Shown: positions 924-21,858, counted from the stretch's first letter. The stretch is DNA of 64,000 nucleotides from an uncultured Actinomycetota bacterium (GCA_963808015.1 CAWEEG010000002.1:1114-65113), one strand, 5' to 3'. Notes: generated from the letters alone by a model not told the origin. Made by a program: numbers and translations.

Positions 924-951
924 GTCGAGCATATTGCCGGCTATGGGCGGG
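924..951. repeat. dif-like site S1 (class X spacer), empty: GTCGAGCATAT-TGCCGG-CTATGGGCGGG
   Basis: Read directly; 11-6-11 structure with CATA...TATG dyad, similar to the other copies. Confidence 0.8.
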
Positions 952-983
952 CCGTTCGGATCTCAGGGTCACGGGAGCGTCGG

Positions 984-2417
984 CTAGGTGCCGCAATCGT
1001 TGTCTTCTGCAGCGAGGTAGGAGGCACGTTCGAGGATACGTGCTCCCTCCAGGATTGTTGTGTAGTCGCTCAGGTTGCTTAGGTAGAACTCGAAATTGGA
1101 TGCAACTTCGTCACAGGAGGTCGAGGCAAGGATTCCTACGATGGCAACCCGGAACCGATCGTCACCCATCGCAATGAGCTGAGCAGCATCCGCTGTCTCG
1201 GGAGTCACGGGTCGAGCGCTAGCAGTCGATTCGTCGGTGGCCGGTTCCCGGTGCTCCTCGTCGCCGTGGATGCTGATGCAGGTTGACTTCTCGTAGTTGC
1301 AGGTAGCCGCCGACGAATGCCTGAACACCCACTCGATGTTGTCCCGGTTGTCGATCCGTTCGTGCGCACCCTCGTACCCGCTGTACTCGTACGCACCGTT
1401 CAGATCACGGGGATGCAAACGTCGGGATGAACACGGCCGAGTGTGACCGCACCGTTCCATCAGGAGGCAACACCCATGCCGGTCCCTGCGCAGGGGACGG
1501 AGTGAACTCGACACTGTCGAAACAACCGTCGTCCCACCGGTTGCCTACCCATGGGAAGTCCTCGCCGTCAGGTCGTGGCCCCGACTCCACCGGCACGATC
1601 AGCGGCAATGTCACGTCGAACCCATCGGTGAGGTTCGTCATCTCCAGCCGCACTACCGCAACAGCCGCAGCACGTTGAGGGTCCAAGCGTGCACCGTTGC
1701 ACCCTGCCGGGATCGGGACCGGCAACTGGGCCGTAGGCAACTTCTCCGGTCCTGACCAGATACGAGAAATCTGGTACCTCACGACGTAGCCGTCTTCGGT
1801 TGTCTGCACCCACTCAGCCAACAACACGCCATCGTGCGGCGATTCCTCGTTGTAGGTGCCGTCGAATCAGACGCCGAGGCGGCTTCAAGGTAGGAGGCGC
1901 AAAGACCATCCAGCTCCGGTCTTATCTTCACCGGGGAAGCCAGTACCAAGCAGAACCCAATGGAGCGACTTGAGATCCTCATAGCCGCCGTTCCACATCT
2001 CTGCCGAGAGTTCGTCGTCGCCGTGGAACCCGGGGGGCTCCCAGTTGTCTTCGTAACTGCGAGGGAGCATGACCAAGACCAACCGGTTTTCGACACCCTC
2101 TGCGAAACCCAGCGTTACAAATCCACAGCCTCCGGCCTCGTGCTCGTCTTCCACAGTCCAGTCCTCACTGGGCTGAATGCCCCACGTGAATGCTTGGCTC
2201 TCATGAGATGCCCACGCAATCGCAGAGACTGCGAGCGGGGATCGAACGGCACCGCTCGCCAGACCTCGGTAGTCGAGTCCCCGGTAGCCGCAGAAGTCGA
2301 GGATGAGGCCGAGTCGCTCGTCTCGGACATCGGCAACGCCTCACCTTCGCTGGGGCTCGAGCAGCAGGCAGTCGCAAGTACCGCAACAACCGACACAAAC
2401 ACAAGGACCTTCTTCAC
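984..2417 (-). CDS. Putative lipoprotein of unknown function, split over several frames
   Basis: ORF 2115-2417 starts with a lipoprotein-type signal (MKKVLVFVSVVAVLATAC). Co-oriented overlapping ORFs 1885-2154, 1405-1827 and 984-1514 follow. Joining them into one gene is inference. Confidence 0.5.
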
Positions 2418-2479
2418 CGTTCTTCTCCCCTTGCTCTCGCTGCATCATGCTAGGCGCGACCGTCTTGGGTCCCGCGACG

Positions 2480-2507
2480 ACCCCGCATGTCGGCACCTAT
2501 GGGCGAG
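2480..2507. repeat. dif-like site S2 (class Y spacer, reverse), empty: ACCCCGCATGT-CGGCAC-CTATGGGCGAG
   Basis: Read directly. Confidence 0.8.
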
Positions 2508-2559
2508 CCGTCAGACCGAACATAGTGAATCTCCTATGTGGGTGGTTTTGTCAAGGTGC

Positions 2560-2710
2560 TTTCGGGTTGGGTGGACAGGACTGGGTTGAGCGACACCATC
2601 TGGTGGCAGGCTCCTATGAGGTCACACCGCCCTGGCGGATGGGTGGGTGGGGTCGACAGGTCAATATGAGGACAGCATCCGAAGACGCGTCAGCCGGTTA
2701 CTGGGTCAGA
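2560..2710 (-). ncRNA. Putative bridge/seek RNA in the 3' non-coding end of IS110-A1
   Basis: On the minus strand, in order: TAACCGGC (+2693-2700), CATATTG (+2662-2668), CATAGGAG (+2611-2618), ACCCAG (+2581-2586). These match left target, right target, left donor and right donor. RNA boundaries are estimated. Confidence 0.7.
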
Positions 2711-2724
2711 CCCCACCCAGGTCG

Positions 2725-18898: not shown

Positions 18899-18962
18899 TA
18901 GCAACGAGTGGAGCAAGAGAGCGGCCCTCAGCTCGACAAGGCGGACGCCTCAGCCGAACCAA

Positions 18963-19164
18963 CTAGTTGTTCTCGTCTGTCCGCCGCCTCGATGCCTTGT
19001 AGTGCGCCTCACAGAGCTCACGCCTTATGGCTCTTGCCGCAGTCCTTGACGCCGCACAGCTTTGCTCGGCTGGGTACGGGCGCTTCGACGGTCTGATCGT
19101 CGAAGAATCCCACATCGCAGGCCTTGCGACGCTCTGCGGCCTTCCGCCGGCGGCGGGCCTTCAT
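18963..19164 (-). CDS. Small phage-like Cys/His (zinc-finger-like) protein, frameshifted
   Basis: Manual translation MKARRRRKAAERRKAC...KLCGVKDCGKSHKA, then after a frame change ELCEAHYKASRRR. Confidence 0.4.
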
Positions 19165-19849
19165 TCTTCGGCCTCTTGGGCAATGGCTTGCTCGGAGGTG
19201 TGCGAGTTGGTCGGTCTGACGAATTTCACCGGTTCACCGTTCGCGCGGAGCCAAGTGTGGCGGCCTCAGTCCCGGTCTTGTCGGGCTTGTCGTTCTAGTT
19301 GGGCTTCGCTCTCGGCGTCGTTCTCGGGCGGCGGCGGCTTCTCGATCCAGGCGTCGGTGTTGAGGTTGTAGACGGCTGAGGGGTTCGGTTGGCCCTCTTC
19401 GGTCGGCCGGCTCGATGTCGCTAACGGTCGACACCTTTCGGGGCTTGGCGACACTCACGAGGAGACCCGGATGGCCCGCTCTATCGCTTTGAGGCGCTCG
19501 ACGATGATGTCTATGGCTGCGGCAATTCGAGTGAGTTGCTCGGCTTTCGTCTCTTCGGGGAATGGATCCATTGCTCGACCTCCCTTCTCGTGGGTGGATT
19601 GTGAGGGAGGGCGCGCGCCGAACTGCGCGCGCCCCCCGGTCGTACGACTCCGGCCCCGGGGGCGGCGACACGTCGCCGCTGGCCCGTGTTGCTGGAAGGG
19701 AGAAAGAAGCCTGCCGCCTTATGTCGTCGAGTTCTTGAATCATTGGCTGGCGGCGAGGAGTGTCTTTGTGACTTGCTCGGGATCCTCGGAGGAAGGGGCG
19801 AAGGTAGGTAGGTCCCCAAGGGGGGAGACCTTCCCTTCCTCCTTTTACC

Positions 19850-20291
19850 CGGCTGTTGTATATCGGCCATCGGAGGCACGGTCCTACATCATCAACAAGT
19901 TGGGGGAGAACGAAGGCGGATTGGGTGCCGCCGAATACATCTTTCTTGTTCGGCAACCCCGGCGACAAACCCGTTGTTGGGGACTGGGACGGTGACGGCA
20001 TCGATGAGATCGGATTCATCCCGAATCCAGCGGGTTCTTCTCTACCGCAACATGCTGACAACCAGGGATTGCCGATGGCCAGTTCTACTTCGGCGATCCG
20101 GGTGACCGGTTTGTCTCCGGCGACCGGGGTGTCGTGGATGGGGTGGATACCCCTGTGATGTATCGACCTCGAACTCGACGTTCTACTTCCGTCACACCCT
20201 GACCCAAGGCATCGCCGATTCAGAGTTTGCGTGTGGACCGGAGCCGGGTCTCGATTGGCTCCAGGTGTCAGGAGACTTCACCCTCGACTGA
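19850..20291 (+). pseudogene. 5'-truncated paralogue of the FG-GAP-repeat region of 16267-18898
   Basis: VYRPSEARSYIINKLGENEGGLGAAEY...FGNPGDKPVVGDWDGDGID is homologous to residues encoded near 16650-16790. No signal peptide or start is visible. Confidence 0.65.
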
Positions 20292-20330
20292 GCCACCAAG
20301 ACAGCAGGAAGAGGGACCGCCCATAACCGG

Positions 20331-21718
20331 CTGGGTGTGTGTATGCGATGATCAGGGTGGTGTTGCACGCCCCGGTCGGGCGGTGAGGGTCCGGTTGAAC
20401 TGTTAGCAGCAGTTCGGTTGGTCTCGGTCCGCCGTCCCGGTGGCGTGTGCCACCCCTTTGCCCATTAGCGAGAGAAAGGGGCAGCCATGTCGATGGTATC
20501 TGGAGTGATCGGTGGTGTGGACACGCATGCCGATGTGCATGTTGCAGCGGCACTCGATACGAACGGTGCCGTGTTGGGGATCGAGTCGTTCCGAGTGAAC
20601 GAGCCGGCTATCGGCGTTGGCGGACTGGCTGCGCGGCGTTCGGTCCGGTCGTCAGGGTTGGGGTGGAGGGGACCGGGTCGTATGGCGTTGGCCTGGCCCG
20701 ACACCTCCACGGAGGGTGTCGAGGTGGTTGAGGTGGATCGGCCGAATCGTCAGAAGCGTCGCAAGCTGGGGAAGTCGGATCCGATCGACGCTGAGGCTGC
20801 AGCAGAGCCGCCCTATCCGGTGAGGCGACGGTGACGCCGAAGCGGCGTGACGGGACGGTGGAACAGATGCGGGTGTTGATGATTGCGCGCCGTTCGGCAC
20901 GGATCAACGCAATCAGACGCTCAACCAGCTGCGCCAGATCGTCATCTGCGGCCCCGATGAGGTCCGGGCCCGTTTCAAGGACCGATACAAGACCGGCCTC
21001 GTCACTGAGGCGGCTGCGATGCGGCCCCGCAAGGGCTCCGACCCGGTGACCTATACGACGTATGTCGTGATCCGGGGTCTCGCTCGTCGTATCCGGGATC
21101 TCAACGACGAGATGCGCACCATCGACGATGCCCTCAACGAACTGATCGGCACGACGGCGCCGTCGCTGCTCGAGTGTCACGGCGTCGGTGTCGTCACCGC
21201 AGCCACGTTGCTGGTCACGGCGGGTGACAACCCGGACCGGTTGCATACGGAACGCTCATGGGCGCACCTGTGTGGCGTCACCGGTCCCGGCCGGATCAGG
21301 CAAGACCAGCGGCCGGGTCCGTTGAATCATGGCGGGGACCGGCAAGCCAACGCGGCGCTCTACCAGATCGTCCTGACCCGCATGTCAGTCGACGCTGAGA
21401 CCCGCAACTACGTCAGGAGGCGCCGAGCCGAGGGCCTGTCGACCCGCGAGATCATGCGCTGCCTGAAACGCTACGTCGCCCGCCAAACGTTCAAACACCT
21501 GCCCACGAGCCGCATAACAGATCCTGGGTGGGGTCTGACCCAGTAACCGGCTGACGCATCATACGGGTGCTGTCCTCATATTGACCTGTCGACCCCACCC
21601 GCCCGTCCGCCAGGGCGGTGTGACCTCATAGGAGCCTGCCACCAACACGGTGTCGCCCAACCCAGTCCTGTCCACCCAACCCGAAAGCACCTTGACAAAA
21701 CAACACACATAGGAGATT
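20331..21718 (+). mobile_element. IS110-family element type A, copy 2 (inverted relative to copy 1), inserted in site S13 (halves 20316-20330 and 21719-21731 rejoin as ACCGCCCATAA-CCGGCA-ATATGTTCGGT)
   Basis: Close reverse-complement match to 2528-3919. Confidence 0.9.
20487..21546 (+). CDS. IS110-A transposase copy 2, several frameshifts
   Basis: ORFs 20487-20834, 20831-21049 and 21019-21546 reproduce pieces of the 2725-3762 protein. Confidence 0.85.
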
Positions 21719-21858
21719 CAATATGTTCGGTCCACGAAGGGCGCATGGCAGGAGGTTTGTGTGACTAGTCGCGTGGGTCGCGGTGTTGCCTGCTCGATTG
21801 CGTCCGGAGAGCGATTGGTGTCGTCGGCTGGTTCTGGTGTTGCTTCGGTGCGAGACTG

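Follow-up and report, generated by a model that had tools for sequence, protein, structure and literature searches.

We analysed a 64,000-nucleotide stretch of DNA, referred to below as the window, which corresponds to G000:C2:1114-65113, i.e. to part of contig C2 in the metagenome-assembled genome (MAG) G000 of an uncultured actinobacterium. The results make it likely that window positions 924-21731 form a chromosomal array with two arms, made up of mobile gene cassettes that are moved by a tyrosine recombinase that acts at double-stranded sites. A 28-bp dyad punctuates the array on both sides of a gene for a Xer-like tyrosine recombinase, and homology between related arrays ends at copies of this dyad far more often than expected. 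The MAG measures 2.05 Mb in 57 contigs and is 65% complete, and its nearest named relatives are Acidimicrobiia MAGs. Past ~24 kb the contig bears housekeeping genes, i.e. those for leucyl-tRNA synthetase and LepA, and the context of the array is therefore chromosomal.

The 28-bp site and its two classes

The initial annotation had listed one recurring dyad site with the 11-6-11 geometry of Xer/dif sites at twelve positions of the region, and the motif was found at all of them. Of these twelve, four are intact and six are interrupted by insertion sequences (ISs) of the site-specific kind; the other two are a degenerate copy and a hybrid. A pattern of the full site with at most 3 mismatches gave three matches where 0.03 were expected (~100 times chance), and a shuffled genome scored in the same way gave no sites. 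The annotation had seen no copy in the core region, and this also held: past ~22 kb the window contains just chance-level 13/18 matches with wrong centres. The idea of one recurring site, however, had to be amended. Although the dyad is shared by all positions, the copies fall into two classes by their 6-bp centre, GTGCCG in class 1 and CCGGCA in class 2, and their polarity is opposite across the recombinase gene, minus to its left and plus to its right. The class 1 consensus is CCGCCCATAK-GTGCCG-WTATGGGCGG and that of class 2 is CCGCCCATAT-CCGGCA-TTATGKKCGG, with a right arm that is often TATGTTCGG. The arms of the 28-bp dyads are perfect over 9-10 bp, and the centre between them measures 8 nt (6+2).

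The perfect copy is a class 1 site of plus polarity at 15463-15490, CCGCCCATA-GGTGCCGA-TATGGGCGG, or CCCGCCCATAG-GTGCCG-ATATGGGCGGG when divided 11-6-11. It forms a composite (15418-15490, plus) with an intact, imperfect class 2 site at 15418-15445 (plus; CCGCCCATG-ACCGGCAT-TCTGGGCGT), the starts of the two being 45 bp apart. This order of class 2 then class 1 is mirrored at 2480/2515, where an intact, imperfect class 1 site (2480-2507, minus; CCCCGCATG-TCGGCACC-TATGGGCGA) is the partner, and it is also seen in the genomes G018 and G033 and at locus L024. Class 2 sites mark both outer ends of the array, at 924 and at 20316/21731. The left boundary site, S1 (924-951, minus; TCGAGCATA-TTGCCGGC-TATGGGCGG), has the centre TGCCGG on the plus strand, a degenerate outer arm, TCGAGCATA, and a consensus inner arm. 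The degenerate site, at 10807-10834 (minus), adjoins the stop codon of the recombinase gene, as had been stated. The hybrid site (16086-16137, plus) combines a class 2-type left part, GCCGTCCATATCCGG, with a class 1-type right part, CCGACATGGGCGG, around a 24-bp palindromic insert, and is probably the scar of an IS30 insertion that was later deleted. This palindrome, TGCGATTTCAGGGGGTCATCGCAG, is similar to the inverted repeats that the IS30 element has at 13443 and 14659. At the six split positions (2515/3934, 5680/7172, 9347/10799, 11811/13098, 13428/14674 and 20316/21731), the halves rejoined across each insertion rebuild the site.

Arrays in relatives and evidence for recombination at the sites

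To describe the distribution of the site, we scanned the window's own MAG and a set of 61 genomes, including 21 of the genus. The MAG has 6 intact sites, on three of its 57 contigs (four on C2, one on C4 and one on C53), and IS-split sites beyond C2 lie on C52, C4 and C53. Within the genus, 15 of the 21 genomes carry the site at no more than 2 mismatches, and 46 sites were found in one genome of another genus of the family (g14). A reversed control pattern had no match in the site-bearing genomes and a single chance match over all 61, in the site-free G059. The sites are clustered in few islands and are not scattered like repetitive extragenic palindromic (REP) sequences. About 27 sites occupy 28 kb at G018:C3:5753-33119; 8 or 9 lie on G018:C1, and 5-12 on each of G010:C5, G010:C1, G016:C5, G017:C20 and many contigs of G033. 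The exact core was present on at least 120 metagenome contigs and on no viral contig, and plasmids gave no match; a phage or plasmid origin of the sites was rejected on these grounds.

The conditions that the annotation had named as refuting its reading thus failed: the motif is clustered, and cassette content varies from genome to genome. The window's left flank was of little use for a comparison of orthologous loci, since this flank is not conserved in the genus; the matches were three copies of 87-92% identity inside the MAG and one hit of 76%, and the breakpoint at S1 was all that the comparison gave. G017 shares the left flank of the G018:C3 array at 96% identity, yet lacks the array and any synteny beyond; this comparison fits a flexible island and is not a precise empty site. 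Within the MAG, homology of the left flank to C51 and C52 (87% identity) reaches as far as the right arm of S1, past which the sequences are unrelated.

The flank was also inspected in its own right. The MAG holds three versions of it, 78-92% identical (C2:90-2064, C51:54589-57892 and C52:1346-4601), which consist of an inositol-monophosphatase-family gene and a neighbour; each ends at a cassette site and is divergent beyond. Three versions that end at a site imply either that the bin mixes several related populations or that the flank itself is repeated. A 1.3-kb segment present on C51 and C52 is missing from C2 at window ~820.

The pooled array set comprised 107 loci with 355 sites. Polarity was single in 58 of the 66 loci that have at least two class 1 sites, switched once in 8 and switched more than once in none, and only 10 of 251 adjacent site pairs differed in polarity. 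The switches ran nearly always from minus to plus; the two exceptions are places where two arrays abut at class 2 sites. A logo built on 113 class 1 sites showed that the six central bases, GTGCCG, are 96-100% conserved and that the right arm is somewhat better kept than the left.

Recombination at the sites was examined through the ends of homology between loci (at least 85% identity over at least 200 bp, with ISs masked and the metagenome set included). Of 74 internal breakpoints, 42 fell no further than 12 bp from a site; at random 3.0 would be expected there, and the highest count over 500 trials was 11. An earlier, small test had placed 6 of 40 ends at sites; the larger metagenome set was tested afterwards. 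For the 37 breakpoints that lay in a site of both loci, the arm beside the shared cassette had 1.4 mismatches and the far arm 3.8 (Wilcoxon p = 9e-6), and the near arm was identical in 15 cases, the far arm in 1. Because the near arm is kept and the far arm is divergent, the point of exchange lies between the arms. One example of this linkage between arm and cassette is a cassette that is 96% identical between G000:C4 and G010:C1.

Two further observations concern single loci. The metagenome contigs L175 and L180 are 99.8-99.97% identical on either side of one site. In L175 the site is empty (L175:3322; CCCGCCCATA-TCGGCACA-TATGGACGAC), and in L180 a 2463-bp insert stands between the hybrid sites ...TCGGCACT-TATAGGGGTAAT and ATTACCCCTATA-TCCTCACA-.... 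The inserted element (L180:1502-4006, Ga0316193_10010106; empty counterpart Ga0316190_10006042) encodes two overlapping tandem tyrosine recombinases of 394 and 427 aa, both with PF00589, and has dyad arms of its own, TTACCCCTATA and TATAGGGGTAA. Its route of entry was evidently an exchange within the site centre. The array on G016:C5 (locus L018), in turn, contains three site-bounded copies of a 305-bp cassette for an 88-aa predicted membrane peptide, at L018 positions 6439-6770, 8398-8729 and 8703-9034. These are 99-100% identical, two of them stand in tandem, and a variant of the downstream arm, GCGAGCATA, moves with the cassette.

We propose the following mechanism for these arrays. Each cassette, of one or a few genes, would be bounded by a 28-bp double-stranded site of the Xer/dif type. 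Dimers of a tyrosine recombinase would bind the two arms, and strands would be exchanged across the invariant 6-bp centre. A pair of sites in direct orientation would then excise the intervening cassette as a circle with one site, and the circle, which we infer as the intermediate, would re-enter at any site of the same centre or class and so make direct repeats. Excision and re-entry at direct sites would explain why polarity is uniform, why arms are linked to cassettes, why arrays are mosaic and why one cassette is duplicated. With their different centres, the two classes of site might be kept from reacting with each other.

The recombinase and the rival explanations

The gene at 10835-11752 (minus strand) encodes a tyrosine recombinase of 305 aa with SAM-like and catalytic domains (PF02899, PF00589). 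The catalytic set R-K-H-R-H-Y was read from an alignment to E. coli XerD, the closest solved structure, via the motifs RVSE, KGGK, HSLRH, SHAD and RY. The XerD and XerC models score the protein at 160-162 bits, about half of their cut-offs of 330-335, and it shares 33% identity with the host Xer encoded on C7. As judged from its sequence, the protein is Xer-like and is not an orthologue of XerC or XerD. With the integron-integrase model TIGR02249, whose cut-off is 265 bits, the protein scored 84.7 bits, and the match covered the C-terminal catalytic part only. The recombinase is accordingly not an IntI, and the 28-bp dyads are not attC sites, in line with the differences from integrons that the annotation had pointed out.

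In the window, the recombinase gene marks the place where polarity switches and has inverted class 1 sites on its two sides; this arrangement is shared by G016:C5 (92% identity), by OZ244166.1, a closed chromosome (73%), and by G049 (68%). The order in OZ244166.1, by class and polarity, is 2-, 2-, 1-, 1-, gene, 1+, 1+, 2+, 1+, 2+; the G049 copy is a pseudogene with three minus sites upstream. In relatives, a proper class 1 site follows 14-190 bp past the recombinase stop, and the gene adjoins a site in L152 and L158, two metagenome contigs that had been picked for the site alone. Orthologues in the genus are confined to site-bearing genomes (8 of 15, versus 0 of 6 without sites). By reasoning from its location between inverted sites, the recombinase gene alone among the cassettes is safe from deletion, and any inversion between left-arm and right-arm sites would keep it central. 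In many of the relatives with 60-73% identity across Actinomycetota, the gene is preceded by a core of the GTGCCG type and followed by the core CTGCCGG. The annotation had described the array as having its own recombinase. The location at the switch and the restriction to site-bearing genomes speak for that description, and the points gathered below speak against it; that the protein is the dedicated enzyme of the array is, in our judgement, about evenly balanced, with host XerC/XerD as the main rival.

Other features were seen around the gene. Its 5' leader (window 11753-11810, minus strand) is conserved throughout the family, as seen in L021-L035 (GTGCAGGTYGGTTC...), and a hairpin in it, TTCTCCC...GGGAGTAA, would sequester the ribosome-binding site; this predicted hairpin may be a translational control element. 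Many of the loci L025-L067, from other Actinomycetota, have GATCGGCAC(C/T)TCC 140-280 nt upstream of the recombinase gene and, 50-85 nt downstream, a terminator-like hairpin followed by CTGCCGG(A/T)T, with no cassette arrays nearby. Such loci could be a minimal unit of recombinase and two cores.

To relate the cassette site to the host dif, we used the published actinobacterial dif of Frankia alni (PMC3025954) as a search pattern. A single-copy sequence, CGCCCATAA-TCCACG-TTATGTCAAG, was found in 35 of 41 relatives (among G001-G052) and is the probable chromosomal dif of this order; the canonical dif was not found in the window's own MAG, which is 65% complete. The arms of the cassette sites, CCGCCCATA and TATGGGCGG, match the left arm of the host dif, CGCCCATAA, which by homology is the XerC-side arm. 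The XerCD-type geometry that the annotation had proposed is confirmed, and class 1 is a palindrome of the XerC-side arm with another sequence as its centre. In class 2, the right arms start with TTATGT like the XerD-side arm and are only partly XerD-like. The arrays lie away from dif (in G018, for instance, C3:168290 is the position of dif, and the array occupies 5.7-33 kb), and with up to 19-46 copies per genome the cassette site is not single-copy as a chromosomal dif is.

Several observations weigh against a cassette array with a recombinase of its own. G018 (41 sites at no more than 3 mismatches), G010 (17, likewise) and G017 (a number within the same range) lack an orthologue of the recombinase; these MAGs are 81-93% complete. 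The polarity switches of L016, L020 and L115 hold ordinary genes, so that a recombinase at every switch was rejected. The wider recombinase family (60-73% identity) occupies 80 loci, and recognisable sites occur at the closest few only; arrays around all relatives of the recombinase were accordingly rejected for most of these loci. Gene strand is unbiased with respect to site polarity (20 same, 27 opposite), unlike in integrons, and no common promoter is evident for the cassettes. Finally, the sole empty/occupied pair concerns an element with two recombinases and arms of its own, and not an ordinary cassette.

Since the site-rich genomes include some without the recombinase, host XerC/XerD stays a rival: they might run the same cassette system entirely, with the local recombinase a passenger or a selfish cassette. 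We consider this possible, though on balance doubtful. It would be in line with the identity of the site arms to the XerC-side dif arm, with the TTATGT start of class 2 right arms, with the switches that lack a recombinase and with the fact that the recombinase gene is site-bounded like any other cassette. A class 1 palindrome of one arm type, however, points to one recombinase species and not to a XerC/XerD heterodimer, and further points against host enzymes alone are that the recombinase occurs in the genus only where the sites are, that its position at the switch is kept down to 68-73% identity and that the gene stands beside cores of the GTGCCG type in the wider family as well. Moreover, the arms of the sites near the G049 gene are of the ACATA type, while the host dif there keeps the arm CGCCCATAA; this single case hints that arm sequence goes with the recombinase clade and not with the host dif arm. 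An inversion switch of the shufflon type, in which recombination between left-arm and right-arm sites would flip segments and vary the expression of surface proteins, with cassette gain and loss secondary, seems improbable to us. Most arrays are one-armed with all sites direct, which permits excision and insertion only; the sites lie at the 3' ends of genes and not between promoter and gene; and the content of the cassettes, not just their order, varies between genomes. The two arms of opposite polarity around a centre and a cargo rich in lipoproteins and secreted proteins would suit such a switch, and by reasoning inversions would preserve the minus-then-plus pattern.

Two explanations dispense with recombination as the function of the sites. 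The dyads have 10-bp GC-rich stems at the 3' ends of genes, and REP sequences are known IS110 targets (PMC11187229; bioRxiv 10.1101/2025.01.17.633520), so that they might be REP-like intergenic palindromes, i.e. terminators, mRNA stabilisers or transposase-spread repeats, that are neutral to recombination. This explanation is very improbable and has been largely refuted by the confinement of the sites to islands (four of the MAG's 6 intact copies are in the window), by a "loop" that is invariant and asymmetric, by a polarity that is uniform whatever the gene strand, and by homology that breaks between the arms, with hybrid junction sites. That the sites are functionless by-products of ISs, either their ends or their preferred targets, we find scarcely credible, even with 6 of the 12 window sites carrying an IS. 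Four unrelated IS lineages share the site, which therefore predates them; the great majority of sites in relatives are uninterrupted; and the half-sites are flanks that are absent from IS copies elsewhere. The cassette-array reading of the initial annotation is thus sustained by the long arrays of uniform polarity, the breaks of homology at sites and the arms that travel with cassettes, and falls short in one part, the enzyme, whose identity we infer from position and distribution.

Insertion sequences, cargo and known systems

The inserts in the six split sites are five IS110-family elements (PF01548 and PF02371), of three types (A, B and C), and one IS30-family element (HTH_38 and rve). IS110-A1 splits a class 2 site at 2515-3933 (minus; IS ~2527-3919, half-sites 2515-2526 and 3920-3933) and has an intact 345-aa DEDD transposase at 2725-3762 (minus); copies 90-98% identical to it are found on C4, C44 and C52 and at window 20331-21719. 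The latter copy, IS110-A2 (IS ~20331-21719), splits the class 2 site of the right boundary at 20316-21730 (plus; CCGCCCATA-ACCGG..AA-TATGTTCGG). Its transposase frame is broken, and both DEDD domains were found in the other four IS110 copies. The class 1 sites at 5680-7171 (minus; IS ~5692-7156, transposase 5811-7046, minus) and 9347-10798 (minus; IS ~9359-10783, transposase 9546-10694, minus) are split by IS110-B1 and IS110-B2, which share ~73% identity, and the class 1 site at 11811-13097 (plus; IS ~11825-13084, transposase 11831-12874, minus) by IS110-C. The IS30-family element (13443-14659; terminal inverted repeats TGYGRTTTCAGGTG) splits the class 1 site at 13428-14673 (plus), with a 2-bp GC target duplication in the site centre; relatives of it are located in arrays of G016, G018 and G010. 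Class 2 sites thus hold IS110-A, and class 1 sites hold IS110-B, IS110-C and IS30.

All five IS110 inserts lie in the centre of a cassette site, as in the site-specific insertion of IS110/IS1111 elements, and their insertion points are fixed: type A in CCGG^CA (class 2), types B and C in GTGCCG (class 1). The site's flanking G/T variation is kept beside IS110-B1 and IS110-B2. Elements of the IS110/IS1111 group find their targets via a guide RNA (PMC11187229); an Rfam scan of window 1-25000 gave no family match. Since half of its sites are interrupted by ISs aimed at the site centre, the array in the window is probably largely frozen or inactive. An unbroken site variant with the centre GGCTTCGA, e.g. 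CGGCGCATA-GGCTTCGA-TATGGGCGG, was also noticed (G005:C54:977-1002, G002:C430:890-915 and L115:14977). The first six bases of this centre equal the last six bases of IS110-B, and the variant may be an IS-excision footprint or a separate site variant.

Cassette statistics were taken from 75 cassettes of relatives. Their median length is 826 bp (interquartile range 488-1372), and 63% of them have exactly one predicted gene; the site lies at a median of 45 bp from the stop codon and 133 bp from the start codon. The window agrees with the earlier remark that genes end near sites: the stop of the open reading frame (ORF) 984-1514 (minus) is 33 bp from the site 924-951, and that of 15501-15971 (minus) is 10 bp from 15463-15490. 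The first of these ORFs, which has no Pfam match, belongs to the cassette 952-2479 (minus), and the second, a predicted lipoprotein, to the cassette 15491-16085 (minus). The cassette 3934-5679 (minus) has two ORFs, 4126-4725 and 4957-5511 (both minus), the second with a signal peptide. On the plus strand, the cassette 7172-9346 encodes a 679-aa predicted lipoprotein without Pfam match (7179-9218), and 14674-15417 another predicted lipoprotein (14805-15350). The last interval, 16138-20315 (plus), which may be one cassette or more, contains an 863-aa secreted repeat protein (16307-18898) with CarboxypepD_reg, SdrD_B and Vps62 domains, and a further repeat-bearing stretch. Overall, the cargo of the window has mostly no Pfam match, and several of its proteins have signal peptides or lipoboxes. 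The secreted protein begins with an N-terminal run of ~47-aa FG-GAP-like repeats. These repeats (window 16307-18898 and 19850-20110) have many DNA-level relatives, 65-79% identical, on C1, C6, C8, C16, C20, C32, C38 and C47, and make up a large family of paralogous surface proteins.

The arrays share their type of site with pdif modules and their logic with integrons, and have full membership in neither. The modules known as pdif consist of alternating C/D-D/C pairs on plasmids. The arrays described here are long and chromosomal, with up to about 27 sites in direct orientation; class 1 has two XerC-type arms around an invariant centre, in place of one XerC and one XerD arm in alternating orientation; a Xer-like recombinase gene, putatively dedicated, stands at the array centre in some genomes; and the arrays belong to an actinobacterial host and carry a cargo other than resistance genes. 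The analogy drawn by the annotation therefore holds for the type of site and fails for these features. Both systems have 28-bp double-stranded 11-6-11 sites with arms like those of the host dif, and small gene modules bounded by them. The literature found on pdif modules, in which genes are flanked by XerC/XerD sites, is restricted to Acinetobacter (PMC7399989, PMC12907356), and there too ISs home to the sites, namely IS1202 elements, which target pdif and dif (PMC10132070).

Integrons offer similar parallels. The IS1111-attC group comprises IS110/IS1111-type elements that target the integron cassette site. Integron cassettes are likewise mostly single genes of similar size, many without known family, with a uniform polarity of sites (here, the 10 switches in 251 pairs) and with cassette duplication. 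The sites described here, however, are 28-bp perfect dyads that are putatively used double-stranded, whereas attC sites are folded single strands of 57-141 nt; the recombinase falls below the IntI cut-off; and the genes lie in either orientation without evident common promoter, in two arms of opposite polarity. Integrons are defined by IntI, attI and arrays of attC cassettes (PMC4889954). The integrative mobile elements exploiting Xer (IMEX) that are stacked at dif, e.g. in Vibrio cholerae (PMC9226527), resemble the arrays in that elements with dif-like sites accumulate in tandem by Xer-type recombination, but the present arrays lie away from the single-copy chromosomal dif and their units are single genes, not phages.

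Two other systems place an enzyme gene among short repeats. Shufflons of the Mycoplasma Xer1/vpma type and the plasmid R64 type invert DNA between sites at gene 5' ends within one locus. They share with the window a Xer-like recombinase gene beside multiple short sites and surface-protein genes, and differ from it in that the sites here are mostly direct and at 3' ends, with a content that varies between genomes. In REP sequences and bacterial interspersed mosaic elements, the gene for RAYT, a HUH enzyme, is flanked by inverted REPs. Short GC-rich palindromes at gene ends, an enzyme gene between inverted copies and a role as IS110 target are common to both; the sites described here are clustered and not dispersed genome-wide, have an asymmetric invariant centre and a uniform polarity, show recombination breakpoints that fall between their arms, and stand with a tyrosine recombinase instead of a HUH enzyme.

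Among dedicated platforms for gene capture, integrons are the textbook case, and to our knowledge their absence from Actinobacteria has long been noted. The arrays look like an undescribed counterpart of the integron; a literature search found no description of such arrays in Actinobacteria or Acidimicrobiia, with subscription journals mostly outside the search, so that an earlier description is possible. The fuller picture is one of an integron-like capture system of Acidimicrobiia, not described before, with double-stranded dif-like sites in two classes that perhaps do not cross-react, and with a dedicated Xer-derived recombinase that inverted sites at the array centre protect from excision; its sites are parasitised by three IS110 lineages, an IS30 element and a two-recombinase element. 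We hold this picture to be as probable as its opposite. The sites would be a natural case of several IS110 lineages, RNA-guided in studied members, that converge on one recombination site. The 28-bp double-stranded site and the 305-aa recombinase form a directly testable candidate for a recombination tool, and they make it testable whether a palindrome of XerC arms is recombined by XerC alone or needs a dedicated paralogue. If the proposed reading is true, cassette arrays would have arisen independently from the machinery of chromosome-dimer resolution in widespread uncultured actinobacteria of waters and sediments, and would provide a concrete mechanism for the flexible genomic islands and the turnover of surface proteins in these organisms.

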